Below, piece by piece: positions 19,591 through 62,645 of a stretch of 64,000 nt of DNA. A program made the position numbers and the translations under genes. The notes under the pieces are model-generated. The model made no database searches. It was given only the letters and a program-made list of their open reading frames with translations, and was not told the DNA's origin. The number at the start of each line of letters is the position of its first letter. Within the stretch, counting starts at the first letter, position 1. Source of the stretch: Octopus sinensis (lineage: Eukaryota); NCBI RefSeq assembly GCF_006345805.1, contig NW_021832232.1, forward strand, positions 248,001 through 312,000, in the 5' to 3' direction.

Positions 19591-20040
19591 GAGGATTATA
19601 ATTTTATTTCCTAATTGGATCAACGGGAACTGTAGTTGACGACGACAAAAAAGATTCAAGATTGAATTCTATTTTTGTTAGTCTTTAAAGTCTTCAGAGA
19701 TTTGAAAGATTTGATTTTTCAACCTAAAAAACAAAATTCATTCATTTCCCCGTAATATCGACATCTTAAAATGTCAGGCTTCAATTAGAACATCGGGAAA
19801 TCGATTTTTATTTACAGGGCGATGCTGATTATTTGTAACTAAGATTATAAAAGGTCTTTGGCTTTTTTTCTAAATCCGGGAAATCAGATAAAATCATTGT
19901 TTTCATGTTAAGTGAGTGAAAGTGCAGACTACCTATATAAGCTTAACTCAACAAAATAAAATCTAATGAAAATGAAGACTTTTCTTTTCGTCCGAGCATA
20001 AGAATGTGCCTAAATAATACTATACCATTTCCTATACTAA

Positions 20041-20300
20041 ATGGGATTAACGTCAAACAAAGTGGGATTAACGTCAAACAAAGTGGGATTAAGGTCAAAC
20101 TATGTGGGATTAAGGTCAAACAAAGTGGGATTAACGTCAAACAAAGTGGGATTAAGGTCAAACTATGTGGGATTAAGGTCAAACAAAGTGGGATTAACGT
20201 CAAACAAAGTGGGATTAAGGTCAAACTATGTGGGATTAACGTCAAACTAAATGGGATTAAGGTCAAACTATGTGGGATTAACGTCAAACTAAGTGGATTA
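20041..20300 (+). repeat. 21-bp tandem array, about 12 units (left TIR)
   Basis: Unit GGGATTAA(C/G)GTCAAAC(AAA/TAT)GT. Confidence 0.95.
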
Positions 20301-20745
20301 CGTTTATTATAAATATACCATTTACAACTCTATTTTGCATGTACGAAATTTAATTTGCGGTCAGTAAACTCATTTCTGCAAGTAAGAAATGATTTTTGCG
20401 GTTAAGAAAGTCATTTTGCAATCAAGAAAATTAATTTGCGGTCATGAAAATCGGTTTTGCAAGTGGGAAATTATATTATATTTCGACGCAGCAAATAAAA
20501 ATGCCACGTAAATCATTGGAAGAGAAAAATCAAATGCATAGAAATAAAATACATTTAATTTCAGCTGCAGAATCAGGTGGAGATTGGAAAAAAACAGCAC
20601 TTGAACTCAATATCCCGAGAACAACGAGAACAATATAATTGGATGCATCTCAAATCTAGGACTCATTTACTGTAAAATCCGAAGGGGAGCTTTTAAAAAA
20701 GAGCAGATATGGTTAACATAAAATTTTAAAAAAAGAATTTTTGGT

Positions 20746-20990
20746 GTTAAATCCCACATAGTTTGACCTTAATCCCACTTTGTTTGACGTTAATCCCACA
20801 TAGTTTGACCTTAATCCCACTTTGTTTGACGTTAATCCCACATAGTTTGACCTTAATCCCACTTTGTTTGATGTTAATCCCACATAGTTTGACCTTAATC
20901 CCACTTTGTTTGACCTTAATCCCACTTTGTTTGACGTTAATCCCACATAGTTTGACCTTAATTTCACTTTGTTTGACGTTAATCCCATTT
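20746..20990 (-). repeat. 21-bp tandem array, about 11-12 units (right TIR, inverted)
   Basis: Reverse complement of the same unit. Confidence 0.95.
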
Positions 20991-21818
20991 AGTATAGGAA
21001 ATGGTATAGTCACCTAGTATTTCTTAAAAATTATCTTATTTGTTCCAAATTAAAGGCTACAAAAGACTAATTAAGAATCTATTTCCAATTTCTATAAAAA
21101 AAGTTCTGCAATTGAGATATTATTTCTATACAAGACTCTAATTTCTTGGTTGTTACAAAATGTAATTTAAAACTCAAAGTTAATTTTATTTATAATCATT
21201 CTGGCAGTCTCGACTGGTCTTTTATTATCATTTTATCTACAAGAGTATCACTCAAGTAGAATATATTTCTCGTTAAGTCAGTGAATCTCAGATGTTAAAT
21301 GTGTGATAAAAACATCACTCATTTCGGCGATATAAATATGTCTGAAAAAATTTTTCTATGATTTGTCAATAATTACCTTAAAAGCGTATTCTCAAATGAA
21401 TCAAAAAAATCGAATTATCAGAAAAATTCTGATCAGAAAAAATGTCATTAGAATGTCATTTATACATTGAGTAATGCAGAAAAGATTTTTATTTCCTGTT
21501 GGACAAACCAGCTATCTCCCTTCCATTTAAAAATTAAGTCGAATAAATCCAGATATTAATTAGGTCTTCAAAATATCTATGGGTTTAAGAAAAGTTTTTA
21601 TTATTTCTTGACCACAAAGTGAAATATCGCAGATTAAAAATGTTGGTAAATCTAGATATTAAAAAATCTTTAACAAATCTATGGATTTAGAATTTCTCAC
21701 CAAAGCTTAGTCCTTTTTTATCAAATTTAAAATCTGGAAGAAGAACTTAGTACAGAATTTAGAAAAGCAAATAGAATTAGTCCTGAATTGAAAAAACCAA
21801 AAGTGATTTAAAAACTAA

Positions 21819-23881
21819 TTAATCGACTTCCTGGATAGTTGGTCCGGAATTATCACCAGATGGCGCAGGACCTGAACCATTACCAGAGAATCCACCAGGG
21901 AAACCGCCAGGCATGCCACCAGGCATTCCTCCTGGAGCTCCACCTTGTTGATACATAGCTGTCATAATAGGAGTTGCCACATCTTGCAATTCTTTCATAA
22001 TGCTTTCAAGTTCCTCAATATTAGAATTAGAATGATTGAGAGTGTCCAGTTTGGAGAGAGTGGACGTACATGAACTCTCAAGTTTTTCACGGTCAGAAGA
22101 AGGAATCTTGTCTTTGTTCTTATCATCGGCTATTGTCTGTTTATAGCTGAAACACAATCCTTCAATTTCGTTCTTCTTGGTTACGAAATTTCTAATCCTC
22201 TCGTCATCCTCTTTGAATTTTTCAGATTCGTTGACCATTCTCTCGATTTCTTCTTTACTCAGACGTCCCTGTTCATTTGCAATGGTAACTTTATTTTCTT
22301 TTCCAGTTCCTTTATCCATTGCGGATACGTTGAGAATTCCATTTGCGTCAATATCAAATGTGACTTCAATTTGAGGAACGCCTCGAGGCGCAGGGGGAAT
22401 CCCACTGAGTTCGAATTTTCCAAGAGCATTATTATCCTTGGTCATTGACCGCTCTCCTTCAAACACTTGAATTAACACTCCTGGCTGATTGTCTGCATAG
22501 GTTGTGAATGTCTGAGTCTGCTTCGTTGGGATGGAAACATTTCTTTTTATCAACGGAGTCATTACTCCACCAGCAGTTTCAATTCCAAGAGAAAGTGGTG
22601 CAACATCCAAAAGCAAAAGCTTCTGAACATCTTCGTTCTGTTCGCCCCCCAAAACAGCGCCCTGGACAGCTACAACTATACCACATCTCTATTACCAGCT
22701 CCAAATGCAACAGCTTCATCAGGGTTAATTGATTTGTTCAGTGCCTTATTATTAAAGAACTGAGCAAGCATTGTCTGTATTTTGGGTATTCTGGTCGACC
22801 CTCCAACAAGGATAACTTCGTTGATTTTGGATTTGTCCAATTTGGCATCAGCAAGTGCCGACTCCACTGGCTTGAGAGTCATTTTAAACAAAGAATCGCA
22901 AAGACTTTCAAATCGAGCCTTGGTGATCGTTGTGTTATAATCCTTTCCATCAGCCAATGAATCAATCTCAATCGAGGCCTAAAATATGTATCCACAACAC
23001 ACACCGTCGTGCTATTCGACAATGTTCTCTTTGCTCGTTCACAGGCAGTCCTCAGTCTTCGGAGAGCCCTCTTATTTTTGGAAATATCGACAGATTGCCT
23101 CGTTTGGAACTCATTGACACAATATTCGACCATTTTATTGTCAAAATCTTCGCCACCCAAATGAGTATTTCCATTTGTGGACTTTACTTCGAAAATTCCA
23201 TCTTCAATAGTCAAAATCGAAACATCAAATGTTCCACCGCCAAGGTCAAATATCAGCACATTTTCTTCTCCACTTATCTTCTTATCCAACCCATAGGCAA
23301 TTGCAGCCGCAGTTGGCTCGTTGATAATTCTGAGCACATTCAACCCAGCAATCGATCCAGCATCCTTAGTGGCCGTTCTTTGTGCATCATTGAAGTAAGC
23401 CGGCACAGTAACAACTGCACTGGTCACTTTGTACCCCAGAAAAGACTCAGCGGTTTGTTTCATTAATCCCAAAACTGCGGAAGAAACTTCTTCAGGGGTT
23501 ATAGACTGCTGTTGTCCTTTGTAAACGACATTTATTTTGCATCCTCCGCTGCTGCTGCGGACCACTTTGAAGGGGAAATTTTTTATGTCGGACTGCACGT
23601 AAGAATCATCAAAAGGTCGGCCAATAAGTCTTTTAGCATCATAAATTGTGTTTTCGGGATTTACAGCACACTGGCTTTTGGCTGGGTCACCAATCAGTCG
23701 TTCTGATTCGTTAAAGGCGACATATGAAGGGGTTGTTCTGTTTCCTTGATCATTGGCAATGATTTCCACTTTGCCATTGATAAAGGCACCAACACAGCTG
23801 TAGGTTGTACCGAGGTCAATTCCAATTACTTTTCCAGTAGAAGTCTATTATGGATTAAAATTAAAGAAAGTGACATACCAT
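21819..23881 (-). CDS. HSP70: Cytosolic Hsp70/Hsc70
   Basis: ATG, then intron 23845-23878, then [18 protein letters not shown]. Further introns lie at 22979-23004 and 22670-22695 (26 nt each). Motifs: [30 protein letters not shown] repeats; ends PTIQEVD. Confidence 0.97.
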
Positions 23882-23935
23882 TAACAAGTATTGCGATATT
23901 AAATTGCCGTAACGCTTTTAAAGGAAACGTTGTAG

Positions 23936-23958
23936 AGAATGTGCTGGAAAAATCGAGT
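23936..23958. promoter_or_regulatory. Possible degenerate heat-shock element
   Basis: aGAAtgTGCtgGAAaaATCga about 60 bp upstream of the Hsp70 ATG; only two perfect nGAAn units. Confidence 0.25.
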
Positions 23959-24572
23959 ATGAATTTATTAGTTATCGATTTAAGGTTTTCCATTGTCAAA
24001 CATTAAATATATATTTATAATATTTAATTAATATAAAAAATTTATAATTTTCTAATCTCTGTAAATAATTTAACCTAAAATTAAAAATACTTCCTATAAT
24101 TTAGGCTTTTAAACCAATTTTAAATAAGAACCTAACATGGAGTATACCACTGGTAAAATCCCATGGAAAATTACGGAAAGTAAAAGTGCCTTCTGAATAA
24201 ATTTTTGATATTTGTATCCTTTAGATTTAGTGTTCATAAAAAATTGATAAAGAATGTGGAAATTCTGAGAATTTTCTATGTGAAACGAGTCGAAAATATT
24301 TTATTCTTTGCAACCTTATTCATTCTGTGTATAATAATATAGAATAGACTGGTTACAAAACATAGCTATAGTTATTTAAGATAGCTGGGTGTAAATAATT
24401 CTCTATATACAGTCAACTATTCTTAAAAAGACTAGAAAATATGCTCGCCGTATATCTATTCAACAAGAAACGGCAAATTGCATCTTTTCTGAGTTCAGAG
24501 AATTAGTGTGGAGTGCCACCTCTTGGTTATCCCGAAGATTTAGGACTTAGTTACATAGTTAAATAGTTTAAA

Positions 24573-24735
24573 AGCCCAGATGAAGTTACGTTCTTCCCTT
24601 TCCGAAAGAGTAAATGTCTAGAATGGGACTGTCCATGTACCGACACTTTCTCCTGTCCAATCTTGATAACTTACCTCTCTGTGTGTACTAAAGACCTCAT
24701 GAGATCAAATGGCTGTATCGGCGAGGGAACAGCTA
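24573..24735 (+). mobile_element. Old CRE-like RLE fragment
   Basis: PDEVTFFPFRKSKCLEWDCPCTDTFS...PHEIKWL...RGNS. Confidence 0.65.
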
Positions 24736-25201
24736 AACAATTCTATTTCTTATTATTGATAGAGTTTTGTGAAAATATAAACTCAAATTTCCCTTTGGCT
24801 CGTTCGGATGGAAAGTAGGTCACAGGCGTGATGTGACTTTCTCAAGACAATTTGAGGACAAATATTTTTAAAATTCCTTAAAATTCGCCCATTTTATAGA
24901 TTTAGATTACCATAGTAATTTTATCGGTTTTTTACGAAATTTAATTAACTAATTAAATTACAATGATGACACGTGGATAACCACGTGAGTGGTTTTATTG
25001 TTTATTTCGAGGGACTATTTAATGAATAGTATTCGACTGTTTTGCCAATAAAATTGTATGTCTGTTTTTTAGTTTATTATAATTTTTTTATTATTTAGAA
25101 TTAATTTTTAATTTAAAAATTTCGGTTTGGTGTGTTATTTATACATTTTTTCATAACCTAAGTTTACCTTGATTCATAACATTCTCATTTAGCTCATAGT
25201 A

Positions 25202-25510
25202 ATGTCAGATGAAATAATATATCTGGGAACAGAATATACACCAAAATCTAACGAAACAAAAGTTCAATCATCAATCGACACTCCCACTGTTATTACAAAT
25301 AAGCCTGAAACCATTCCTGAGTCAAATATTGGCCCAATGCAACGACTATATGCGCGTATTGTATCCGCAATTGGGGATATAAACAACGACTTACTGCCAT
25401 CATATGCAGGAAGCAGAACCGCGATGGATCGTTTGAGACGAAATATTGGCCAAGCACGTGCTCTTTGCAAAGAAGGAATTGGAAAAGTGGAAGTTTTAAA
25501 AAGAAAATGA
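25202..25510 (+). CDS. CDK2AP1: CDK2-associated protein (DOC-1/CDK2AP family, NuRD subunit), intronless
   Basis: YARIVSAIGDINNDLLPSYAGSRTAMDRLRRNIGQARALCKE matches the family motif [42 protein letters not shown]. Confidence 0.88.
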   Translation: MSDEIIYLGTEYTPKSNETKVQSSIDTPTVITNKPETIPESNIGPMQRLYARIVSAIGDINNDLLPSYAGSRTAMDRLRRNIGQARALCKEGIGKVEVLKRK

Positions 25511-26558
25511 TTCCATTTTTGTCTATTTCGTAAATCTAAATATCCTTTCTTACTTTTTCATAATTTTCATGAATATTTAATTCATGGAAGATTTAATTAA
25601 ATAAAAAATGAATGTAAATTTTTTTAAATAATTTAATTGTTTACACCAGCGGTTCTCAACCGGGAGTCGCTTCGGGGGTCAAATCAGCCCAGATCGATCG
25701 TAGGGGGTCGAAACCAAATTTTCATAAGAAATCTTTTTCTCATCCAAAAATAATTTGACTATAGTAAAAATAGAAAATCCAGTATTATCAGTTTCCAAAT
25801 ATTTGACGAAAAATAAATCTTCTGTAAGAATAGCATGATCGTCAAAATATCTTAAAAAGTAAGCATTTAACAAGATTAACCTGACATATCTTATTAGAAT
25901 TGATTGGTCTATCTAAATGTTTTCTTCTAAGATGATCCAACAATTTGGACGGTTTCATTGCATCATTTGATAATGATTTATTACACAATAAGCAGTGTGG
26001 TCCATTATCAAAGGAATTTTTTATAAATTTAAATGCCAACGTCTTGTGGTTCACGCTGAGGTTATATTTTCCAATTTTATTTTATAGGTGCGATGGTTAT
26101 CAAAGGGAAATGCATTAGAACGATTTTTAATATTATTTGACACAATGGTGAATTTTCTAACTTCTGAGGGTGACAAAAATTTAGCAGATTTAATTGTATT
26201 GAAAAGAAAGAAATTATTTATTTGACGTGGATTTTTGGAAAATTTAATGAAATTTCATTAGAACTTCAGGGAAAGTATGTGACGTTAATAGATTGTAAAA
26301 GAATTATTCAAATATTTTTCAAAAAATAAAGTTGTATAAATATAACTTGGAAAAAAAATTATTATAATATTCCCTAATTCCAATCAATTTATCAAACATT
26401 TGATGAAGATATTAACAACTTTTTGCAACATTTATTAAGTATAAAAAAGATTTGATTCTTCAATTCCAAGATATTCTTGAATTAGAAATACCATCTTGGA
26501 TGATTAATCCTTTTTTATCGAAGCCAGAAGAAGAAAAAAATATATTAAAGAGGAATTA

Positions 26559-29430
26559 CAGTACGACCCCGGTTTGGGGCAGACCCCATGGGTGGGGCAC
26601 CCTCGGGTTTTGGGGCACCCCCGCTTTTAGGGGCAGTTTTTGAAAACAGTAAATTTTTCATTCTATTATTTATTTTTGATGACCCCGGTTTGGGGCACTT
26701 ATTTAATTTATTTAATTACAAAATGTTAGTTTATTTATTAATTATTAATTAATACTATTATTTCACGTGTTTATTTTGACTTTAGTATGGTTCGTAAAAA
26801 GAATTCAAAGATTAATTATGAAACAAAAATTAAAATCGCTAAAGATATAAAACATGGTCAATTTTCAGAAAGAGATCTTGCTAAAAAGTATAAAACGAGC
26901 AAAGGTATCTTTTTTAACTAATTATTAATTACAGGTACTATTTCTCGCATTAAACAAAATTTTGTTTATTATTTTGACGCGGGATTAACTGAATCCGATA
27001 GAATCAAGGAATCACATGATCCAAATAATGAATTAGATAGATTAGTTTTTGAAACTTTTCTACGTCTGAGAGATGAATTTCTTCCAATTTCTGGAACTAT
27101 CTTAAAACTGATTGCAAAAAAATTATCTAAAAAGATAAATTATGAATCATTTAAGGCAGGCATTCTCAACCTTTTTTTGTTCATCGCCCCCTTAGATATT
27201 TTGTCGCCCCCCTTTGAAATGTTATCGCCCCCTTGTCCACCTACAATTTAAAAATTTTTTGGCATTGTCCCTTAATTGGTTGTTTTTTGTACATAACTCA
27301 AAAATCAAAATATAAAATTATAAATCAAATGTAAAAAATTGAATTTTTATTAAAAATTATTAGTGAGACCCTTGATATTGATGTTTACTCGCTAAATATT
27401 CTATGTCGGGTTTAATTCTGCTCAACTTTAGGCGTATATCGCCTCTATAACACACTTCCAGTCTATTTTTTTCACATTGTGTATTATGATTGACAAAACT
27501 AAATCCACTTTTAACCAAATAAGTGGTAGGGAATGTCAATAGTACATTACTCATTTCCTTCCATAAATTTGGAAATTTCATTTGTAGATCTTTTGATTGC
27601 CAAAATTTAGAGATACCATCCTGTTGAAATCTGTGAATATATTCTTCATTATATTTAAATTCAATTATCTCTTCTTGGATTGTTTCGTTCATATCTTCTG
27701 GCACACATGAAAACGGATCAATCATCCATGCTTCAAATTCCAAATCAAACAAATCTTTGAATCTAAGAGATATATCCGCTTCTAGTTCCGTCAAATGTTG
27801 ACAATATGTCAAAATATTGTTTTGACTAAAATATTTACTTATCTCAGATAGTTGTGAAATGTTTCCAAACTGATTTTAGAAAAATTATGTCGATAAAGCA
27901 ATAATTTTTTTCAAATGTTTTCATTATTCTTTTGCAATCAATCATGTTGACAAAATTTCATTAAATTTTGAGTCTAAATTATTAGGCTTGCCATTAAAAA
28001 TATTCTAATTAAATAATTTTTAATAAATATAAATTTTATTTTTTATTAAATATATTATCGCCCCCTGTACAAAATTATCGCCCCCTTGTACAAAATTTTC
28101 GCCCCTAGGGGGCGATTCGCCCCCGGTTGAGAACACCTGATTTAAGGCATCAAATGGATGGCTAGACCGGTTCAAGAAAAGACACGAGTTGCTATTTAAA
28201 ACTATAAGTGGAGAAAAGAATTCATCTGACCTTTCTACGGTTTCCAATTTTTTTGCTGATTATGACAACTGTTTGGAAACTGTAGGAAGTGAAAATATTT
28301 TTAACTGTGATGAAACAGCTTTATACATAAAGCGAACGCCGTCGAAATCTTTTGTTCAATTTAATGACAAATGCAATGGAATTAAAATGAGCAAAGAGAA
28401 AGTTACCCTTCTCCTTTGTTGTAATGCACTTGGTGAAAAGTTAAAACCTCTATTAATTGGAAAATTCAAATCTCCTAGGTGTTTAAAAAATTTTAACGCT
28501 GAGGATCACGGAGTACTATATGCTGCATCAAAAAATTCGTGGATGACTAGTGATATTTTTGGGAAATGGTTATGGAAAGTAAATCAAGATATGATCAATG
28601 AAAAGAGAAAAATTGTCTTAATACTGGATAATGCGAGCTGTCACAGAAATACAGAATATTCCAATGTTTATTTACTTTTTCTTCCCAAAAATACGACCGC
28701 TTTAATTCAACCCCTAGATATGGGAATAATAAAATCCTTCAAGTCCCTCTATTTCAATAAACTGATTGATTTTACTCTTATATTTGAAAAAGAACAGCTT
28801 TCTGATTTGAATTTGAATAATGTCAATCTTAGACAAGTCATTACAGTTGTCGGGGAGGCATGGAAAATGATGTCAGAGACAACGATAATTAATTGCTGGC
28901 AGAAAATAAATGAAAACAGATCAAAAATTTCGGATAATGTACAGTTGGACGAAGAATTAATAGATGACGTGATTTCAGATGTTATTTCAATGGATTCGAC
29001 AGATATTATTGAGGACAAAATTACTTATGATGGATATGAATCTAAAAAATCATCAATTAAAGAAATCATAAACATCGTGAATTCTCTAGAAGATAATATT
29101 TTCAGTACATGTCCACAATTTTTGAAAATCTACTACGAATTTAGAAAAAAACCTATCAGGAGAACTGAAAAAAAACCAATTCGGTGAGAAAATTACTGAT
29201 TACTTTTAATAGTATTTTTGTTGGATTTATTAAAATTTTTAAATTTTATTAAGAAAGGACTATGTTAGAATTTTTATTAATATTAAATAATTTTAATTTA
29301 TAGTCTAAAATGCAATAAAAATCTATTGAGGAGAAAATAAAAGCAAAAAATCTTTACCCTCGCATTTTGGGGCACCCCCGCTTTTTGGGGCACTATGATA
29401 AAAATGCTGCCCCAAACCGGGGTCGTACTG
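26559..29430 (+). mobile_element. Near full-length pogo/Tigger transposon; its transposase has a 30-nt intron and is split by a hAT element
   Basis: Perfect 24-bp TIR CAGTACGACCCCGGTTTGGGGCAG with TA TSD. ATG 26787, intron 26905-26934. FKASNGWLDRFKKRH is restored after removing 27157-28139. NCDET, LILDNASCH and QPLDMGII motifs are present. Confidence 0.95.
27157..28139 (-). mobile_element. Non-autonomous hAT (Buster) element, 983 bp
   Basis: CAGGCATTCTCAACC / GGTTGAGAACACCTG, 8-bp TSD ATTTAAGG, ATCGCCCCC subterminal repeats, ORF with FPTTYLVKSGFS. Confidence 0.93.
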
Positions 29431-29479
29431 TAATTACTTTAAAATTCAATCCAGAATTAAAACTATTATAAAATTATTC

Positions 29480-31015
29480 CGTCGAATCTACACACCCGCT
29501 GCGCAATGCGTCCTGGAGATTCAAACACTTCTCCTGACATTACCTTATGGTCCCCAAACATTGCACTTGACACCAAATGGACAGTCGTGTACGACCTACC
29601 AACGACCCACAATCCTATTCTAATCAAAATAAATCATCTCCCTGCAAAGAAGAGAATTATAAAGACCTACATTAATTACAAACGTAGGAAATGGGACTCC
29701 TTCAGGAATGACACTGAGCGTATATTTAGTAATTTTTCTTGCTCCTTCTTTCGATCATTTGATGCTGCTGTTGCTTTCTTTACTAATACACTTCATTCTG
29801 CTGACAAAAGATTTATTCCCCGCGGTTTCATCCAAAATCACGGCCTCCCAAATCGACGACATACATAAATGGAAATGCGGAATATCTAGCAGAAATCAAC
29901 AAACAAATCGACGAATTAATCAAAAAACATAAAAATGAAGAATGGAATGATTTTATCACATCTATATCCCCACATACTGGATCCCGTGTTTTCTGGAGAA
30001 CCCTCAGAAAAATTCATAAAAGGCAAGCATGCCCTCTCTCACATGCCACCGGTATTTCGTCTAAAAAATCTGTCCTATTTTTTCGGGATCAAGCCAACAT
30101 CTTAATTTGTCATTATGCAAAAATTAGTCACCTTCCTACCCCAAAGGATCTCCGTTTCATAAGAAAATTTCATTATAATTCCAATGTCGATTCTACACAC
30201 TTTATTAACATCCCAGAATCACTTACCAAGCAGCTTGTTGTTAACTCGCAAAATTCTAACTCCAGAGGTCCGGATGGTCTTGACATCCACTATCTAAAAA
30301 ATCTGGGTCCAAATGGCTTTCTGGCTCTGACTAATTTAATCGAATACTCGATCAACCATGGTTTGGTTCCAATGCTTTGAAAAAAATCTATCATCATCCC
30401 TATTCCAAAACCAAATCGAGATACCTCTGACCCTTCTTCTTTTCGACCTATCTCTTTGATTTCAGTGGTTTCAAAAATAACAGAACGGGTAGTACTGAGC
30501 ATCACAAAACCTTTCCTCCCATTTGCTAAATCTCAACACGGCTTTCGTTCTTTGCATTCCACTTCCACCCATCTTTCAAGACTGACACAATTCATTGCGG
30601 ATGGGTTTAACAATCATAATCCTCCTCAAAGAACAGTTATCGCATTCAGTTATCCCAGAAGAGAATTCACGACTTGGTAGATACGAAGGCAATCAGATGT
30701 CTTGGAATAAACAAGCTTCTGGGATGCATTCCGCCACCAATAAACAACAACGAATCCTCTCTCTCAAGAGAACCCCGAGTGAACTTGGCCCGTCTCCGCT
30801 GTGGCCATCATATTGGGCTACGCAATTATCGTCGAAGAATAGGCCTTGCTGAATCCACGCATTCCCACTCTCTCGATGACCTTTTCTCGTGTCGAGGCCC
30901 ACCTTCTGCTTCCTCAAAACACCGGATCGCGATCGGGGATCTTTGGGAGCGTCCGACATTGACAAGTTCGTTCTTGTTAGCCACCGGTTTCCTTCAATTG
31001 AAGAGGCCGGGGTAA
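29480..31015 (+). mobile_element. Internally deleted APE-RT non-LTR retrotransposon (I/Jockey-like)
   Basis: SPDITL...HNPILI, GPDGL, SSFRPISLISVVSKITER, QHGFR, and C-terminal LARLRCGH...HSLDDLFSC. Confidence 0.8.
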
Positions 31016-31089
31016 ATAAATAAATATTCCGTCGAACAAAAAACCGAAAAAACAAGGAAAGATCGTTAAAATTGAGATTAAACATTTGA

Positions 31090-33125
<2,036 letters not shown>

Positions 33126-33129
33126 GTGC

Positions 33130-35170: not shown

Positions 35171-35189
35171 AGTCTAATCTACTACCACC

Positions 35190-35530
35190 AACAAAATTGT
35201 GGAAATCCGAGTTGACAAAAACCTTCAATGCTATCCCGAATAATAAGTTTGACAAGGTGAGGATAAGTTCACAGAAGTGTCTCAAAAAGTCGAAATAGAA
35301 AAGTTCCACAAATATGACCTGCGGCAAATAAACTAGAGGCGATTCACCGAGCGAAAGTGAAAATCATAAATGTCGTTATGACCTGAGACGGAATAGTATC
35401 AAAATTTTTCAAAAAAATTGGAGGCGCTCTAAGTGGAAGACAAGGTGAATGCATATATCAAGACACTGTTGTTGCGAAAAATCATAGATAGAATGCAAGA
35501 CAAGGCGAGACACTGGTTATCGATATGCGT
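35190..35530 (+). mobile_element. RLE-type (R4/NeSL-like) non-LTR C-terminal fragment
   Basis: VEIRVD...KVEIEKFHKYDL...KVKIINVVMT*DGIVSK...KVNAYIKTLLLRK; same family as 42780 and 43320. Confidence 0.65.
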
Positions 35531-35814
35531 TGAGAGAATGGTCACTGAATCTAGATAGCGCGTCGACATGGATCTGCCTATCCATGCTATGAATGTAGGA
35601 CCTAAGAGAATGAGGTTAACGTAAAGAAATACATCAAATTACCAAATACCAAATTATTTTTATGTTTATTGTAATCGCATCCGATCGAATTCTTTTTTTT
35701 TTAAAACTATTTTTTCGTTACAAAATTAAATGTAAGATAAAAGTAAAAGAAAATTCCTAACCTCTCAATATTTAAAAAGAGACTTAAGGCGGAAAATAAT
35801 TTTTGAAATAAAAA

Positions 35815-35886
35815 AGGCTCCATTGGGGATCGAACCCAAGACCTTCTGTTTACTAGACAGACGCTCTACCACTGAGCCATGGAGCC
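35815..35886 (-). tRNA. tRNA-Thr (AGT)
   Basis: GGCTCCATGGCTCAGTGGTAGAGCG-TCTGT-CT-AGT-AA-ACAGA-AGGTCTTGGGTTCGATCCCCAATGGAGCCT; 72 nt, folds as a cloverleaf, followed by an oligo-T terminator. Confidence 0.95.
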
Positions 35887-36239
35887 TACAAATGAGGTTA
35901 GTTCTATCGAAACTAATAACTGTGAGAAAAGAAATTATTGATTAAAATCTATTAAATCAACTGATTTAAACATTGAATATTAATGATGAGATGGATGTCA
36001 ACGAATATGTTTCCGTGGACCGTTATGCTAAAACATACTGTCATATTGAAGAAGACCAGATATTGTCTACACTTCGAAGAATTAATGACAGTAATGAAGA
36101 AGACATAAAAGAAGACTTTACTAAAGAAACCTTCTGAAAATGAAATGGCTAATGCGTTCGAAGTTATACTGCGCGGGATCGAGTTTACTTTAGGGAGTTC
36201 AACAGGGCAATCCACTAGGTCCCCTTCTCTTTGCCTTGG

Positions 36240-37470
36240 AATTATAGCTCGGTTGGTTTCTTCCGAAATGAATATTTGGTATCTGGACGATGCCACTATT
36301 GGCGGCTCCCCAGAGACGATTTTCAAAGACGCTTTATCGTTAGCACCTGCGCTTCTGAGGATTGGAATGGAGATTAACCCCACCAAATCCGAATTAGTCA
36401 GTCTCAACCTTCCTGATAAACGCCTTGACGACCTATCATCGTCCCTCCGCACTGGTCTTGGCCAAGTGCGCACGACTGATGTAAATGATCTCCGGATCCT
36501 CGGATCCCCCATCTTGCCGACCGCTATTAAGAGTGATCTTCTTACTAAACATTCGACGCTAACTGGTTTGCTGGACCGCCTCACGTTTTTGGACAACCAC
36601 GTCGGAGAAGGAGAACTCCTCACTTACGGAGAAGTTCCAATTCCTTCTATTCGCGGTTGAGACTTCCGGTTCCTTGGACAGTAAGCAATCAGCTTTGTTC
36701 AGGAGATCGGGTCCCGCATGTCTGCTCTCACAGGCGACGCCCGCGAATCAAGATGGTTTTTCGAGCGGATATCCCTTGCGATAGTACGCTCTAATTCAGC
36801 GGTTCTCAACCGTGGTCCCCGGGGACCACTAGTGGTCCCCAGAAAATTTTTAGTGGTCCCCAGGAATTTTCGAAAAATAAAAATATATTAAAGTTAAAAC
36901 TAATTTTACAATTAAGTATAAATCAAAAACATTGAAATTAATCAAGCGGTTCTCAATCGTGGTCCCCAGAAAATTTTTAGTGGTCCCCAGGAATTTTCGA
37001 AAAATAACAATATAAAGAATTCCCCATTTTTAGTAAAACTGCATTGGAATCAATACTTGTATTCCCCACTACTTATCACTGTGAAATGGCGATGTCGTGT
37101 CTGACTTTTCTAAAAACAAAATATAGAAATAGACTACGGGTACAAGATGATATGCGAGTAGCTTTGTCGAACATAGAGCCTGATATAAGTAAAATTATTC
37201 TGAGCAAACAAGATCAGAAATCTCACTAAATTACTATTAAATTTTCTGTTATTTTCATAATGTTCATGTTATTTTTATAATAAATATTCGAACATGTCTA
37301 AACCTGGCCCTGACGAGGCCAAAAATTGTGCGCTAATACCAAAAAATGTTTATTTTATTTAAGGTGGTCCCCACAAAATTTTATAGTGCAAAAGTGGTCC
37401 CCAGTCTAAAAAAGGTTGAGAACCGCTGCTCTAATTTTTTCTCTATTGCGTCGGCTTCCCGTCCATGAAG
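36240..37470 (+). mobile_element. Deleted CRE-like element (third subfamily) split by a hAT MITE
   Basis: MNIWYLDDATIGG...LRILGSPI, then PIAVETSG...WFFERISLAIVRSN|FFSIASASRP. Confidence 0.85.
36797..37428 (+). mobile_element. Non-autonomous hAT (Buster) element, 632 bp
   Basis: TIR CAGCGGTTCTCAACC, TSD CTCTAATT, GTGGTCCCC repeats, internal duplication of the left end, FPTTYHCEMAMS...KTKYRNRL. Confidence 0.93.
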
Positions 37471-37539
37471 CTTTCGAACACTTGACCGAATTCTTTTTTC
37501 TTAATAAACAAAAAAAACTATTATGGAGTTTTAATAAAA

Positions 37540-38560
37540 TGTCACGCGCCATAAATGAAACGTGAAGTGAAACGTTGTGACCTTGAATTTAATCTCCAAT
37601 TAAGCTCTTGACAATTATCAATCCTCTGGAGACGCGATGGCTCCTCCAGAACGTGTCACAAGCAATAGTGAGGGGAAACAGGACCGCCATCAGTTCTTCT
37701 TCTTTACATACAACTGTACAAAAATCTCTATAATCATTGATGAATGTCATGAATATGAATCATTGATGAATGTCATGATCTTATGAATGTCATAGATATT
37801 TATTCAAAATTTTGCTTTGCTAAAAATAGAAAATAAAGAAACAGTTACAGTTTCGATCAGACTCTTTCAAAGGATCTCATTGGCCATCATGCGCGGGAAT
37901 TGCCAGTCGATCCGCTGCGCATTTTAACCCTTTTCACTTTCTCTATTTAAAAATTGTTCCGGAATCATTGAAAATGAATCATTGAAACTATATTTCTTTC
38001 CTATGGTCCACCAAAAATTTTTCAGTCTGACAACGGAACAGAATTTGTTAATTCAAAAATAACATGATTATGTGAAGAATTAAAAATAATTCATAAAAGG
38101 GGACGTCCAAGACATCCAAAATTACAGGGACAAGTGGAGCGTTGCAATCAAACAATTTGCAGATGGATTCAAAAAGAACTCACCGACAAACAGAAAAAAT
38201 AAGTGGATATTTTAGAAAAAATTGTATATCAGTAAAATATTTCAATTCATTCTTATATAAATATGTCACCGTTTATGGCTTTTTTCCGAACAAGAGGATA
38301 CAACATTTCTTATTTTAATGATGATGAATTAATTGAAGAACATGAAAATCAAAATATCATAAATGACAAATATCTTGAAAGAATGGAAAGAAATTCTTCA
38401 AAAACATTGAAAGAAATTGCAATTGGAAATAATGTTTTGCTGAAAAAAGATTTTGATACAAATCAATGGACGAAGAAGCAAAAATTAGAATATTTTTATC
38501 ATCGACAAATCTTTACTGTTGTTAACTCTTGGTCCAGATTCAGAAAACTTTTTAATATAT
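37540..38560 (+). mobile_element. Ginger2/KRBA2-like integrase transposon remnant
   Basis: TGTCACGCG terminus; GPPKIFQSDNGTEF...GRPRHPKLQGQVERCNQT rve core. Confidence 0.82.
37858..37955 (+). mobile_element. Short CRE-like 3' tail inserted in the Ginger integrase
   Basis: LFQRISLAIMRGNCQSIRCAF*; absent from the paralogous Ginger copy near 14620. Confidence 0.75.
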
Positions 38561-38564
38561 GATA

Positions 38565-40140
38565 GTCATAGAAGAAACGATAGAATTTTAATATTTAGTA
38601 CCAATACTAATTTAACGTTATTGGCAAATTCCAAAACATGGTATATGGATGGAAATTTCTCTTTGACACCATGAATATTCAAGCAAATATATTTTATCAG
38701 AATTGAGTTCAATTCCAGTCCAATTACAGCTATTTATGGAATATTATCTTCTAAATCAAGAAAAATTTACGAAGAATTTTTTGAGACTATTCAAAATGCA
38801 ATTCATAATTTGAATTTGGAATTTTGTCTTAAAACTATTATGGCAGACTTTGAAGATTCGGTATTTCGAGACTTGCAGTATTTGGGAGACGAATACTAGA
38901 GGATGTTATTATGTCGCGAGCGCTGCGAGCGACCCGCAGCGAGCGATCACTCAATTTCTAGATGCGATCAATCAACAAATTCATAAATTGACAAACCGGA
39001 GCTGGTATTTGGGTTTAAATATATTCGATTACAAATTAAAATCGATGCCAAAGCAGAATGTGCTTTAAAACCGATTTCATAAATAAAAATAATATTTAAG
39101 ATTATATTGATATTTTAAATAATGAGAAAAAATCTAAATGCTTCATAATTTATTAAAATGTCAAAACAAGAATCTTCTAAGGAGCAAGCCTGTCTGCACA
39201 GTTCATTTGTGATTAGAAGACTAATTTTAGAGATTGAAACGAGAATAGCAATGAGATCTGTCAAATTATTACCCCCCTCACAACCTAAACCAAATTAGCG
39301 TTCAGTATTCATTGATTTTACTTTTATATTAGGTCTACTAATATATTATTTTATGGGATTCAATGGAAAACTTAAGTTATTTCAATTTTAATTTTAAATC
39401 ATGTTAAAATTTTAAATAATTTAATAAATATATTGTTGATGACAGGCTTGTTAGGCGTCAAAATCGCTCTCAGCGCTCGATCGCTCGCAGCGCTCGCGAC
39501 ATATTATCATCTAAGGCAGTCAACTTGAGAAAAATTCAAGAATTGCATTTAGTAAAAGAATATAAAGAAAATATTAACTTCAACATTTTTTGCGCTATGA
39601 TCGAGGCTCTTGCGTTTTTGCACATTCAAGATATGGAAGAAGGAATAGAATTCCTAATAAATATTATACCAAAAATGTTCCAGATTCAAAATATATAGTA
39701 GATTATTTTGATCGAACATATGTTCGTGGATATTATCGTTGCTTCAATAAACAAGAAAACCCTATAGCTGTTAGAATACAGCACATTTCTCCATTGTTCC
39801 CTCCAATTTTATGAAATGTGTATGAAGCCACGCTCAATAATGACCAAAGAACAAACAACTATTGTGAAGGATGAAACAATAAATTATACAATTTGACGGG
39901 CTATCGTCATCCATCGATATGGAATATTATATCGTCTTTTCAAAAAGAAGAAAAAATGACGAAAAATATTATTGACCAGAATTCCATAAGAAAAAAAATT
40001 ACGAAAAGAAAAAACAAAAGTACTATCAATCGACAAAAAAGCTGTTAAATATATGTCTGGATAGCCAGGACAGAAAAAACAGTAGGAGAAACCTTAAAAG
40101 CAATTGCATGGAATATTAAATATTCTTTTGATTCAAATTA
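38565..40140 (+). pseudogene. MULE/Mutator transposase remnant
   Basis: WYMDGNFS, IMADFE, GCYY|HLRQS, YFDRTYV, RTNNYCEG*NN, HPSIW motifs. Confidence 0.88.
38912..39501. mobile_element. 590-bp MITE with TGT..ACA ends (Ginger-type)
   Basis: Perfect 21-bp TIR TGTCGCGAGCGCTGCGAGCGA and 5-bp TSD TATTA; excision restores the MULE GCYYHL motif. Confidence 0.88.
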
Positions 40141-40784
40141 AATAATCCTTTCATTCACGTTTAATAAAAATCTTTTTTAAATATTTTTGTAAAATTTATG
40201 TGATTTATTTTCAGGAAGAAATGAAACAGAATAGATAAAATATTTGGTTTTTTTTCGCCGCAATATAGAGAGGTTTAAATGTATATTATGATGATTCACA
40301 AGCGTCAGTAATTTTTTGGCAAAATATCAAAGTGAAAGAGACTTATTCAAAATTGTGGAACCAAATAGCACAATTGCTACATAAAATTGTAAATTAAGAA
40401 CGAAACAGATTGGATGTGTCTATTAAAGGAGATATTCGTTTAAAAAAACACAAATAGAGCCAGATATCGAATCTTTGGTCAAAAAACATCAGTCCCATTT
40501 GTATTTAATTGTTATTTATTATAGATTTATGCTAAAATACTAACTTAACATTGAGTTTCGCGTCGGCTTTCTGCCCATGAAGCTTTTATTAATTAACTTG
40601 TAGTTATTTACTTTGTTGTTTGATTAAAAAGTTTAATTTCAAAAAAAAACATTGAGTTTTCTCATTGAGTTTTGTTTGATTTGATTATTAATAATGAATT
40701 CATTTTAGATTGTTAGTTAACTAATTAAAAAATTTTTTAAGGGGGTCGACAAATAAAACAAAATGAGAACCCCTGGTTTACACG

Positions 40785-40905
40785 AAAAACGTATCCGAAA
40801 AACCGAAGTATTTTGTCAGTTTTGTATCTTCAGCCTTCTTTGCGGCGGATTTAGCCTTCTGAGCACACGAAGTTGGGTGTGAGGCGGAAAATGTATCCCA
40901 GTAGA
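40785..40905 (-). mobile_element. CRE-like fragment
   Basis: WDTFSASH..CAQKAKSAAKKAEDTKLTKYFGFSDTFF; similar to 34690-34810. Confidence 0.7.
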
Positions 40906-41321
40906 CTATAGTTCATTCCATTTGTCAAATTTGATAGTCCTCAAATTCCTGTTCATACTCCGAACATTAACTAAACTTTCGAAATATTAAATTTCCACTG
41001 CTTTCAGATTATCTTAGAACTTGATTGGCCGTTAGGAATCCGTAATCCAAAAGATCACGAGTCCTATTTGAGAATTCCAATCTATCGAGACACATTCATT
41101 CCGTGTTATTAGGTCTTCTAATACATCAAAATATCTGCCCCCCGGACATGCAAGTTATCATCATGGCTCATACTTGACTTTAAAACACAAACAAAGAACA
41201 AAATTGTGTCCAAATTAAAAACAACGAGAGTCACTTTTGCTAACCAATCATGTGGATCTGTAATTAACCCACATCAACCTAAGAAAAATAAACAAGAGAA
41301 TAAAAGAAATGAGCAATAAGT

Positions 41322-42431
41322 TCAAGACAGTCTTCTATAATACATCCACATCTTTGTTGTGATTCGATGACTGTGTCTACCAATAAACACACAACTCGAC
41401 CGTTTTCCCGACCTGCCTCCACTCGACGATCGACGCCTTCTACCAATCACAAACAAAATTAACTTTGAATGACTGGGTGAACGTTTCCTATGTTTACTGT
41501 GCTTGTGAATTGGACTGGAATTACTCGGGGAATTGGAATCTACAAATCATCACCACAATTCACGTTCAGAATTTGAATTTGCCAGAGAAAAATCAGACGG
41601 TTTCTTATAAATTGCGATTTTAGAATGAGTGACGCTATTTTGGTGACAAAGACAAGACAAACCTGATCGGGAGACCTTCGAATATTACTTTGTTGTAACT
41701 AAGAGCCAGCGGAACAGAAGATTGGTGGAGATATTCCACAAGAGCACTCACTTGAGGCTTCTCTTGGAATTTAACATAGAAAATGTCTCCAGCCCTTATA
41801 AAAAACTGCAAAAACAAATCCCGATCGACCTTTTCGATAAAAAACGGAATTTACAAACCGGGACTTTAAAATTGGACACACGGACAGTCCTCCGTATTTC
41901 CTCCACCACGGAAGTGTCGGTGAGGGCGGAGAGAGTTGGATATTCAGGGAGTCTAAGTTTGACAAGTTGTGGGTCATGGGTCTTCACCAAGGATATTGAA
42001 TCACCTGTTTTTATCACCTGAAAATCAATGAGGTAAAAATACAGTGTTTTTGACAAAGTTGGGCCAACGGGCGGTTGGATCGACCAAAGTTGCGAGTTTG
42101 AAGGCATCTTGTTCGGTGGGGATCGAATCTTGGTTAGAGGGGGGATATACTGTCAGCCATGAGGTTAATCCGCATAGAGTGGTCGTAAAGAATTGTTTTG
42201 GTCAGTCGGAGAGCCATCACAGCCTCAGATTCGTCCATGAACTTTACATAGGCAACTTTGAAGGCTTGTTTTTTGGTTGGTCTAACAGAATATTTAAAGT
42301 AACAGAAAATACTTTTCTGGATATATTTTTATTCTGGATACTCTTCCTATGTAAGAAAAAAATGATCTTAGTTGGTCTTTATCGACCAGTGGTGATACAT
42401 TTGATACCTGCACAAGCCTTGAGTTCCCCAT
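41322..42431 (-). CDS. SREK1: SREK1/SRSF11-like two-RRM splicing factor
   Basis: RRM1 MGNSRLVQVSNVSPLVDKDQLRSFFSYIGRV; RRM2 EEIRRTVRVSN...ALVEYLHQSSVPLALSYNKVIFEGLPI...VTHSKIAI; short R/S tail. The 3' end is approximate. Confidence 0.85.
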
Positions 42432-42779
42432 AACCTTAATAATTATTCAAATAATTATATTTTTTTAATATTAAAATATTTTATTTTTAAAAACTTCAAA
42501 AATGACTAGAATTTTTGTTTCTAAAAATGAGGAAACTTTAACACTTTTTTAAAGTGTTAAAAGGAACTGATTTTTTATTGCTTTTAAATGCAGTAAAATT
42601 ATTTTTTAAGCAGCTTAAACTGTTTAGTCGACAAAATAATTTAATCCTTGTTATTGGCCATAAACAGCGGACAACTCCGAACTTATTTTATAAAACAAAT
42701 TTACTTTTTGTAGATTTTTAAGTTTTAATTGGTCCCAACATCAAAAATATGATTTATTCGATTCTTATATCAAATGATC

Positions 42780-42985
42780 GTGCCTAGACCGTTTGCAGAC
42801 AGTGGAAGTGGAGAAAAGGAGGAAGTATGACCTCCTTGCAAACGAGCTAGGACTGGTCACTAAATACCACAGGTGGTACTTAAGACAGCTGGGTGTAGAT
42901 AAGTCTCTACATGCTTATATTCAGTCAACTGTTCTTAAGAGGACTCTGGAGAGTGTCTTGTTTGATGCTCGCCGATCCAGCCTTT
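42780..42985 (+). mobile_element. RLE-type non-LTR C-terminal fragment
   Basis: LQTVEVEKRRKYDLLANELGL..VTKYH..YIQSTVLKRTLES. Confidence 0.7.
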
Positions 42986-43319
42986 TCCTGACGTTTAGTC
43001 CGCAAGGGGCTAGACTGCATCTTCTCGAAGGTCTACATTGCCAAAGAGGAGGAGGAAGAAGAGGAGGAAGTGCGTGGAGTGCAATCCTCTGCTCACTTCG
43101 AAGGCTCAGATAATTTATTTATTTGAAAAGTCCAGATAAAATTGATTTTTAACTATTTCGTCTGCTTTCAGTCAATTCTCCTCCTCTTCGAGCCCAAACA
43201 AATGTCTTCGACGGGTACATTTATCCATTTTACAGGGCAGGCCACCTTTGTGGCTGTTTTCGAGTCCGATTTAATTGCATGCTTTCCAATGGAAGGAGTT
43301 TATACTCCGGGCGCATGCT

Positions 43320-43452
43320 TCTCTTGATCACGATCGATTGAATATATATAAGCTCGCGTAGATTCCTGGACTTGTAAGGAGTTCTGGTCGTGTTTGAGGA
43401 TTTGGATGTTATTCTATCCCACGTAATAACCAAAGGTACGACATTCACCTTT
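43320..43452 (-). mobile_element. RLE-type non-LTR C-terminal fragment
   Basis: KVNVVPLVITWDRITSK...YIQSIVIKRS. Confidence 0.55.
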
Positions 43453-44092
43453 GCATAATAAAGGCTAATATCAAATGATAGTAATGATCGAACAATTTCT
43501 TTATTTTTATTTATTTATTAGGACCAAAAACATCTTCATAACCATAATTAACTATTTCAGGTGATCCCAGCCTCTTTTAGAAATAATTTCTTTAATATTA
43601 AAAGATATTAAGGAACTAAATATTTATATTTGTAATATCAATCGTTCAAAAAATAGTAAATAGATTCAAATTTAAATTCTTAAAAAGTTTGATGAAAACG
43701 AACATGAAATTTTTCAAGTCGGTAATTTTTAAATTATCTTTACAAAGGCCGAAAATCATATATAGCGAATATTTCAAAGAATTTATTAGCTAATCATAAA
43801 AATTAATTTTAAAATGTTCATTTTTATAAATTCTGACGCAAATGCGAGCTGGAAAATTGCTTAAAAATAAATATGAAAAATAGTTACCAAAAAAAGATTT
43901 CTTTCTGAATAGGAAGGGTATAGGCTTTTTATATTATTTATTAAAATGAAAATAACGGTTTTTTGTTATTTTTTTCTCAAAAATCTCACCAATTGCTAAG
44001 TCAAAAAATTTCTTAATATAGAATTACATTCATTTCCTAAAATAGAAAATTGTATATAAACAATAAAACAAATGTCCTGCAATTAATTGGCA

Positions 44093-45747
<1,655 letters not shown>

Positions 45748-46322
45748 TGAATATTTTCTTTAATAAATATACAATAATTTCTTTAATCACTATTTTACAC
45801 GACAAAAGACCTATAAACCTACAAATGAGTTTTGTAAATTTCGTTTTTTAAATTTATCGCAAGTTGCAGGTTGGGCAAGTCGCAGTTTTTGAAGCTCAGG
45901 CAACTCCGAGTGGTTCGGATCTGAGAGATTAGTCTAAAAAATAGTGAAAAAGGATTAGCCGATATGTGTTATTAATGACCGAATCAATGGGGACTGGTTC
46001 AGATAAGCAAGCTCGCTAGCAAAAGAAGAGATCCACAACTGAGTGATTTCAGAGCCTATTTTAATGGAGGCCTCAATAATTCTGTCTTTCCTTACGGTAA
46101 TAGAACCGTTTTACGGTCGAGTTTGACAGCGACATATGAAAAAGTATGACAAAAGTTGAAGAATTTTTCAACGGATTGAAGTGATGCCTCCCACCAATAG
46201 CCAAATTCTAAAACTATGTGATGAGAAGTGTGTTTTTCGAGAACACATATGGTTTGAGAACGCTCTGATTTGAAGACACTGGAAATATTTCCCGATAGCA
46301 AAAATTGAAATAAAGAAATAAA

Positions 46323-46394
46323 TGGAGATGCTGGGAATCGAACCCAGGACCTTCAGCATGCAAAGCAGACGTCATACCATTAGACCACATCCCC
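46323..46394 (-). tRNA. tRNA-Ala (TGC)
   Basis: GGGGATG/CATCTCC-A acceptor stem with G3:U70, TGC anticodon, GGTTCGATTCC T arm; one U-U mismatch in the anticodon stem. Confidence 0.88.
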
Positions 46395-46869
46395 GAATTT
46401 TTTAATAAAGGAATATCTGGATGTACAAAACTTTATAATAAAACGTAAATGGTTTAAAGCAGTGTGATTTTTTAAGGTAGCCCAATGTCTAACAATTCAA
46501 TTAATAACACGCACAAATAAATTAACAAGATTTCCACTGTCTCTATCACTACTCTAGCAAAACTACAGACGAAGTAAAATCAACGTGGAAAACTCGGACT
46601 GTTGAGTTTCTATCCTATTGAGCTTAGACTAGGTTGGCATTTTAAAAGGACATTCGTGATATAGTAATAGGCGTTCAGATAGAATAGAAATGTATAATAT
46701 CATGAAAGCCCAAAAACTCGCCATATTTGAAAAAATCAAAATAAAAAGATTTTTCTGTCTTGGCAGCAAAGACCGGGGACCTTTGTTTTGCAGGGGTATT
46801 CTTTAGTAAACTCTATTTAGCACATTTATAGCAGTGCAAAGGTGGTAGGAAATTTCAAGCAACTATACC

Positions 46870-47085
46870 TTTTCAAGTTCAATATGGGAATTTCCAAATT
46901 CAATATGGGATTTCCAAGTTCAAAGTGGAATTTTCCAAATTCAATATGGGATTTCCAAGTTCAAAATGGGATTTTCCAAATTCAATATGGGATTTCCAAG
47001 TTCAAAGTGGGATTTTCCAAATTCAATATGAGATTTCCAAGTTCAAAATGGGATTTTCCAAATTCAATATGGGATTTCCAAGTTA
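46870..47085 (+). repeat. Alternating 20/21-bp tandem array in TIR
   Basis: ATGGGATTTCCAAGTTCAAA alternating with TGGGATTTTCCAAATTCAATA. Confidence 0.93.
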
Positions 47086-47218
47086 ATTTTAAAATATTTG
47101 AAAAAAAATTATGACTCATTTATATCAAACGAAAAAATTAAATTCGATTGGATTTAACATTGGACTGTAAGGTGCAAGTCGAAGTATTTTGTTTTCTGTG
47201 AATTCAGTTTCTTCAAGT

Positions 47219-47396
47219 GGTAATATTTATTTGGAGTAAAAAGATAGAATTATGTTTATGGTGGATATGTAGCCTGGCGGATTGCCAAACTGTTTCCCCG
47301 GATAATAGCGATCGAGAGCCGTTGCATTAGCCAGTTCGCCTCCCGAGGATCATGTGTGCGCATTGAGATTTTGGCTCCGAGCTTGCGAAGGAACTT
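47219..47396 (-). mobile_element. 178-bp CRE-like retroinsertion with 16-bp TSD
   Basis: Flanked by TTCAGTTTCTTCAAGT at 47203-47218 and 47397-47412; near-identical to 34515-34640. Confidence 0.9.
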
Positions 47397-48187
47397 TTCA
47401 GTTTCTTCAAGTATTTTTTCAATGTCTGTATGACATGGAGCATTGTCAATTATTAAAACTACTGAACTTAGATAAACTTCATATGCTTTTTTAAAGCATG
47501 CTTTAATCCAATCATACACAGTTTGTTTATTAAAGGATCCTCTTCGTATTTCAAAGTGTATTACCCCTTTTGTACCGATGCAACCGATAACATGAATGTT
47601 AGCTCCTTTAGATGAAGCTGCACGTGTATTACATCGCTGCCCCTTTTTCGACCTCCCTTGTTTTCTTGATATGTGTAAATTAAAGTTGGATTCGTTCATA
47701 AAAAGAATCGGAATTTCCATTGCTTGATAACCAAGCAGCTTTTCACAAAATCTTTTGCGCTTCTCTTTGTTCTGCATTGAGTTGCTTTTTTCAGGTTCGA
47801 ATCTTGTGTTTTTTATGGTATACATAAGCGAATCAAGATGCAGGCGAACGCACTCACCTGACACTTTTATTCCGTACTTATCTTGGATCTCTGCAGCCAA
47901 TTGTTTGCAAGTAATTTTCGGATTTGACTCGACCATTTCTTGCATATAATCTCGTACGGTATTCCGAGAGAACATGCAACTTGATTCCAATCCCCATCAT
48001 TTTCGTAAACGGTCAACAAATTTTTTCTTTTTTCAGCTAATTCTTTCTTTTTATTAACGTACATTTTGTAATGTAAGGCGATTTTAAATTAATAAATGAA
48101 TTCAATAACCGACTTGAAAATCCTTGAACTTGGAAATCCCATATTGAATTTGGAAAATCCCACTTTGAACTTGGAAAGGTATAGATA

Positions 48188-62430: not shown

Positions 62431-62645
62431 CCTTCAAGGCAAAAATCTCACGTATTAAGAATATCCTTGATGAAAACGACAGCGAGAATATTAACAATGA
62501 TGAACTCCCAATTATTCGCGATAAAGAAATTCAATTCATCCTATGTTTTTCTCTTTAAAATTAAATGCATATATCATTATCGACCATGAATCAAAATTAA
62601 AGCTATTATCATATTTGACTTTGACAGAATGTGCAATCACAGATT

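Follow-up and report, generated by a model that had tools for sequence, protein, structure and literature searches.

The 64,000-nucleotide stretch analysed here, which we call the window (Octopus sinensis RefSeq assembly GCF_006345805.1, contig NW_021832232.1, positions 248,001 to 312,000 of the forward strand), contains two transposable elements, A (20023..21006, plus strand, 984 bp) and B (46866..48181, minus strand, 1316 bp). Each begins with TACC, ends with GGTA and is flanked as C-TA...TA-G, a CTAG site, with the TA duplicates at 20021-20022 and 21007-21008 around A and at 46864-46865 and 48182-48183 around B. These boundaries had been proposed in an earlier reading of the window from its letters alone (the sequence-only reading) and are confirmed, as is a helix-turn-helix (HTH) with a GDW motif common to both elements. 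The window copies are both dead. TA duplication and a DDE/D transposase with a bipartite HTH lying between terminal inverted repeats (TIRs) place them among IS630-Tc1-mariner (ITm) elements. We are fairly confident that A and B, both defective, belong to two related ITm families that target the TA within WCTAGW and duplicate it on insertion, that they reside in what is probably a dicyemid genome, and that their ends are built from tandem 20-21-bp units that are likely binding sites for the transposase.

Element A arose from family A by deletion and is non-autonomous; the family's full frame (351 aa) was found elsewhere in the assembly (L012:1294-2346). The left TIR (20023..20300, plus) consists of a unique terminal 5 bp and then ~12-13 head-to-tail 21-bp units, the right TIR (20750..21006, minus) of ~12 units of 21 bp; computed at a 21-bp period, the arrays hold 12.4 and 11.3 copies, and the inverted arms are 93% complementary over 261 nt. 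Remnants of the transposase (20501..20706, plus) comprise the first HTH (20501-20625, with a GGDW motif) and a short catalytic-domain fragment, with deletions between and after them. The leader of A is itself occupied by the 5' end of a family C element (20317..20472, plus) with a degenerate 20/21-bp array, the junction being uninterrupted in other A copies; family C is of the DD33E type, the number denoting the residues between the second catalytic D and the E. This derivative appears to have been mobilised in trans after its deletion, since copies of it at 4 further insertion sites match the internal part of A with 97.5-99.6% identity.

Element B is a defective copy of the full-length type. 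Its TIRs lie downstream (46866..47084, plus, ~10 units) and upstream (48120..48181, minus, 2-3 units) of the gene and are made of alternating 21- and 20-bp units, giving a 41-bp higher period and 10.4 and 2.6 computed copies. The broken transposase gene (47143..48064, minus, start at 48064) has lost ~80 bp near 47960, within the HTH region, and ~230 bp of its 3' end directly past the catalytic E (47145-47143). Its first D (47696-47694) is encoded as AAC (N), while D is present in all seven of the other B copies in which the motif was found (9 checked). Leaving aside a 179-bp insertion, 35 residues separate the second D (47447-47445) from E; both the spacing and the D-to-N change given in the sequence-only reading are thus correct. 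That insertion is a 5'-truncated fragment of a CRE-like retrotransposon lacking long terminal repeats (non-LTR; 47218..47396, minus), flanked by a 15-bp duplication at 47203-47217 and 47397-47411 and absent from other B copies; its identity had escaped the earlier reading, as had the nested C end in A and the copy-specific unit numbers described below. CRE-like non-LTR fragments also interrupt family B transposases at two other loci (L002, L003), at different positions and as independent copies. The window copy of B was inserted a few bases beyond a separate multi-copy Tc1-like repeat with CAGTG ends (48186-48600), and an unoccupied segmental duplicate of the region of insertion exists (G000:C8703:134684-138106).

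Empty sites define the target. A paralog of the window B site on the same contig (L082) reads as a single CTAG with one TA. An insertion of A in a long interspersed nuclear element (LINE) can be compared with nine paralogs, all with a single TA (8 CTAG, 1 CTAT), and the empty paralogs of a second B site and of one family C site likewise have one TA; a search for the empty site of L007 matched only a duplicate still carrying the element. Since the empty paralogs keep the C, the G and one TA, it is the TA that is duplicated on insertion, and the C and G belong to the target site. Assembly-wide searches with exact end patterns that exclude the flank returned 53 A ends and 43 B ends and none for reversed controls (a looser pattern, with 1674 matches versus 1230 for its reversed control, was discarded). 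From 30 loci fetched per family we obtained 28 (A) and 27 (B) distinct flanks, 55 ends together, of which 52 have C at -3 (compared to 14.5% of TAs in the window), all 55 have A or T at -4 (69% in the window), and 50 have the full WCTA flank, implying a WCTAGW target that accounts for <1% of TA sites in the window. Counted by family, WCTA precedes 32/37 ends in A, 26/30 in B, 18/22 in C, 3/4 in D, 4/5 in E and 2/4 in F. By contrast, C at -3 was found at 0/25 distinct ends of a Gambol-like family in the same genome (48 exact ends, 30 fetched; Fisher p 9e-18), and the CTAG preference is therefore family-specific. The prediction of CTAG empty sites with TA duplication was thus borne out by paralogs, flank counts and an in-genome control. 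In Table 1 of PMC2577343, CTAG is the motif listed for IS630, the eukaryotic Tc1/mariner elements favour AT-rich palindromes around TA, and SB, Tc1 and Minos are not listed with a CTAG target.

The periodicity of the TIR arrays was not reached by any of 200 shuffles at each of the four window ends. Among families A-F and metagenomic elements, 20 ends were tested, and 16 of them have a significant period of 21/42 or 41 bp. For most of the 11 element types in a further comparison, the repeated part corresponds to TIR positions ~6-30 and the terminal 5 bp is unrepeated, within arrayed TIRs of 60-280 bp. The earlier counts of about 12+12 and 11+3 units describe the window copies well, but unit number is specific to the copy (2-14, variable at either end) and no family trait, and a fixed 11+3 asymmetry in B was discarded for this reason. 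Some family A arrays have grown beyond 1 kb in a minisatellite-like manner (L015:1830-2892; L027:2116-3384). Unit sequence follows the kinship of the transposases (A with the metagenomic L093), and the GGGATT core that the earlier reading saw in both window elements is indeed common to A and B, recurring otherwise only in one metagenomic relative. The two-HTH transposase of ISY100 has a footprint of ~24 bp (PMC2170065), and the direct repeats of Bari are bound by transposase in the account given in PMC4120734. By analogy, the array units are probably transposase-binding sites, and we infer that the inner ones bind without a cleavage motif, in the manner of inverted repeat-direct repeat (IR-DR) elements. 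A period of two helical turns (21 bp, or 20+21) could further place successive monomers on one face of the DNA, a functional phasing that we hold with slightly less than even confidence; the phasing may simply reflect the length of the footprint.

The transposase matches the Pfam DDE_3 domain, and its predicted structure (pLDDT, the predicted local distance difference test score, 78) has two bundles of three helices each, an RGG linker and a core of the RNase H type, with Mos1 and Sleeping Beauty as best fold matches. TACC or CACC ends, in most cases after CTA, are carried by at least six families of the assembly (A-F). None of 60 A/B end loci has a frame of at least 280 aa with the catalytic motif; the only intact frames seen are those of family A at L012, where the ends are worn, of family C at L152 and of family E at L142. 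The full-length copies examined, in which the sequence-only reading had proposed to look for extra open reading frames, have none. Protein searches gave unnamed 350-aa relatives at 42-49% identity; Strongyloides, Aphanomyces and a microsporidian supplied named ones, and the relatives that have names are of nematode, oomycete, microsporidian or octopus origin. A count of representatives at E <1e-30 gave 775. Among 19 of 46 metagenomic loci that were inspected, most are too short or without recognisable ends, and 5 (L093, L095, L097, L103, L108) have a YACC end after CTA; 21-bp arrays were found in 4 of these 5. No relative was found in viral contigs; the search of sequencing runs listed no RNA run with the element, and its best DNA run is probably the assembly's own data. 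The D-to-E spacer is mostly DD35E near A and B, DD33E in C and D, and DD32-34E or DD42E in others; a pattern scan of 172 proteins recovered a spacer in 106 (50 DD35E, 15 DD33E, the rest 27-43), and within the close clade a spacer of 34 occurs only in L012 and L094. This variation in the wider clade rules out DD35E as the signature of the family, which the earlier reading had taken it to be.

A phylogenetic tree (LG+G4) was built from 44 sequences chosen from 92, with 4-6 bacterial IS630 sequences and one long-branch Tc1-like sequence. Families A and B fall in a 10-member clade (support 100/99) that nests in a 23-member clade (93/97) also containing C, D, F and oomycete-type proteins; a quick tree of 69 sequences gave the same groups. 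Two Anopheles proteins (P0189, P0190), which we take to be Gambol from their host, DD34E spacer and W[ILV]DEDC motif rather than from reference accessions, form a separate clade (100/99) with the in-genome Gambol-like family, and an approximately unbiased (AU) test rejects the union of this group with the A/B clade (p 0.0003). The A/B clade lies outside the IS630 sequences, in a tree whose root is weak. A and B are 55% identical in the catalytic domain; for the same domain, identity is 24-33% with Gambol-type proteins, 22-24% with the Tc1-like protein and 21-33% with the four IS630 transposases of bacteria that were compared. These comparisons support, as far as sequence allows, a clade with unnamed eukaryotic transposases that excludes Gambol and is distant from Tc1/Traveler and from bacterial IS630, so that the proposal of a eukaryotic IS630-like lineage stands with respect to Tc1, Traveler and Gambol; that this lineage is undescribed is a possibility, Hiker having been compared by description only.

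Several named systems share part of this organisation. Bacterial IS630 (Shigella; Table 1 of PMC2577343, and PMC11544213) has TA duplication at CTAG, a single transposase of similar size with DDE_3 and, like family B, DD35E, but its inverted repeats are ~20 bp, in contrast to the arrayed TIRs of the eukaryotic A/B elements, which also add the A/T preference of WCTAGW. Gambol (DD34E; Coy and Tu 2005 as cited in PMC7386202 and PMC8533490) is likewise an IS630-like eukaryotic ITm group with TA duplication and a transposase of ~350 aa. It differs in the motif DEVGF versus DE[ST]NF, a fixed DD34E spacer where the A/B clade mostly has 35, TAGGG ends and AT-rich targets without C. The Gambol-like family of this assembly (L144, G000:C12603:131822-133292) has an intact 350-aa frame, TAGGG ends, AT-rich TA targets and 2-9 units of 21 bp. 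Traveler shares DD35E with family B and TA duplication with both, but is described as a vertebrate Tc1 derivative with 13-68-bp TIRs ending CAGTC/CAGCC (PMC7093834). The IR-DR elements of the Tc1 lineage (Sleeping Beauty, Minos, S, Paris, Bari) have ~250-bp TIRs with extra copies of the binding site, as predicted for A/B, yet these are 2-3 spaced repeats as presented in PMC4120734, versus 2-14 or more contiguous units here. Dici (DD34E; PMC13469147) and HvSm (DD34E; PMC7325037) are, like A/B, ITm elements outside Tc1 and mariner with TA duplication; the entries in these sources give Dici as fungal, with 432-478 aa and mostly CACTA/CAGT ends (A encodes 351 aa in an animal host), and HvSm as four Hydra/Schmidtea elements with 15-56-bp TIRs, differing from A/B in TIR length and spacer. 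Literature searches, which covered listings and passages, turned up neither a eukaryotic ITm family that targets CTAG nor such arrays, although Repbase, Dfam or closed supplements may have one. We conclude that A and B probably represent an unnamed, family-level ITm variant, with Hiker, Dici and HvSm compared by description only.

Hiker, a DD35E group that Shi et al. are said to have described in 2023, reportedly has short TIRs and mainly fish hosts, unlike A/B with their long TIRs and non-fish relatives. Were the window elements nonetheless invertebrate members of a named group, either Hiker or a Repbase/Dfam TcMar class, only the details of target and arrays would be unrecorded; we think this rather unlikely. 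DD35E in B and in most close relatives is in its favour, as are the kinship of Hiker, itself DD35E with TA duplication, to Gambol as cited in PMC13469147 and the base of our tree, where the Gambol-like, DD30E and A/B clades meet in no resolved order. Against it, the Hiker references listed in the supplement of PMC13469147 are 372-aa fish proteins, and no named fish protein occurs among 25 search matches or 30 looked-up proteins (most of them nameless). On this comparison by description, membership of A/B in Hiker is unlikely. Recent horizontal transfer of an IS630 from bacteria, or contamination by bacterial DNA, would explain the CTAG target and a protein (P0001) that clears the NCBIfam IS630 cut-off (NF033545; 111.9 versus 100). 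This is highly improbable: the Gambol-like protein clears the same cut-off, identity to the four bacterial transposases is low as given above, the best plasmid matches are all <60% (21-31% among the matches listed), only 2 weak partial matches occur in 185,579 prokaryote genomes, the neighbours are animal genes with introns, and the nearest relatives are eukaryotic. Still more remote is the idea that CTA/TAG belong to the TIR, with no or a different duplication; CTA does stand before nearly every end, but the empty sites contain the C, the G and a single TA, some ends lack the C, and the idea is ruled out.

Neutrality of the arrays is a more serious alternative, one with an appreciable though lesser chance of being right. 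Each end would then have one working site, the inner copies would be minisatellite slippage products, and the 21-bp period would mirror the footprint; the freely varying unit number and the runaway arrays agree with this. Conversely, the period is held at 20.5-21 bp despite complete divergence of unit sequence across families and into the Gambol-like group, homogenised units are present at both ends, and the recently spread A derivative has kept long arrays (7-14 units at counted ends, from few independent insertions). The reading of A and B as CTAG-targeting elements with arrayed binding sites has further points to answer. Array length, from 2-14 units to one array >1.2 kb, is not under tight selection, and the arrays may have grown neutrally as minisatellites do; periodicity is not significant at an interrupted D end (L151), in L108 and in two old octopus-chromosome copies; and the Gambol-like family bears 21-bp TIR arrays without a CTAG target, which makes the arrays a feature of a wider group, not one exclusive to the CTAG lineage. 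The target has its exceptions (3/55 A/B ends without C, 3/22 family C ends, and the nested C end in A, at the TA of AATATT), the flank counts take both ends of an insertion as separate entries, and no empty site of the window element A itself was found. In the tree, which contains no Hiker, Dici or HvSm sequences, family E falls outside the 93/97 clade at no settled position, and the root support of 58/87 leaves the deep branches weak.

On the reading that we prefer, with arrays of binding sites, a single ~350-aa transposase with two HTH bundles would bind TIR positions ~6-30. Only the outermost unit, which has the unique YACCW terminus, would be cut, and the inner units would serve as additional places to load transposase, in the way of the 2-3 direct repeats in IR-DR Tc1 elements, but multiplied head-to-tail through slippage or unequal exchange. 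The element would leave and enter DNA by ordinary cut-and-paste, with a 2-bp stagger at TA, the catalytic domain presumably reading the flanking C/G and A/T. More speculatively, A and B may belong to a widespread, unnamed IS630-like family of eukaryotes (animals, oomycetes, microsporidia and environmental sequences) with a 6-bp WCTAGW target, YACCWTTT ends and cooperative loading on helically phased arrays, an end design common to Gambol-type elements and overlooked; in this full form we advance the proposal only tentatively and think it somewhat unlikely. If true, it would provide a naturally sequence-restricted integrase of Tc1/mariner type. The rarity of WCTAGW among TA sites is relevant to vector design, and a eukaryotic lineage with the CTAG preference of bacterial IS630 shows that this specificity was either retained or re-evolved. 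The A/B and Gambol-like families in one genome offer a comparison for locating the residues that read the target flanks, and the constant two-turn period with free unit sequence a direct test of whether phased extra sites help transpososome assembly. Proteins filed as octopus genes are probably parasite transposases.

The likely source of the window is a dicyemid cobiont, a parasite of the octopus, rather than the octopus itself, because introns in its HSP70 and tyrosine kinase genes are 26, 26 and 25 nt long (22670-22695, 22979-23004, 44883-44907), its G+C content (GC) is 35%, and all 96 exact A/B ends are on small contigs, with none seen on chromosome-scale contigs. For Dicyema japonicum, the figures given in PMC6736024 are a mean intron of 38 bp and 36.7% GC. 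A record under the name Octopus sinensis is, however, identical to the protein that L012 encodes. Old degenerate copies with similar ends and ~47-51% identity to B occur on octopus chromosome-scale contigs (L148 on G000:C9; L160/L011 on G000:C20), and by sequence kinship the host and the probable parasite both appear to bear the clade. One octopus chromosomal gene (L141, G000:C3:141868700-141869870; P0048, P0319, P0320) fuses a THAP domain, a transposase of the same clade that has lost its first catalytic D, and a BTB domain; proteins almost identical to it carry the names of O. bimaculoides and O. vulgaris, and the gene looks like a domesticated transposase. In several relatives (L101, L102, P0050, P0061, P0146) an N-terminal Cys/His pattern, RING-H2-like as judged by eye, is fused to the transposase. 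Elsewhere in the window, positions 61550-62435 are occupied by a 94-bp tandem array of 9.4 copies with a 95% match.

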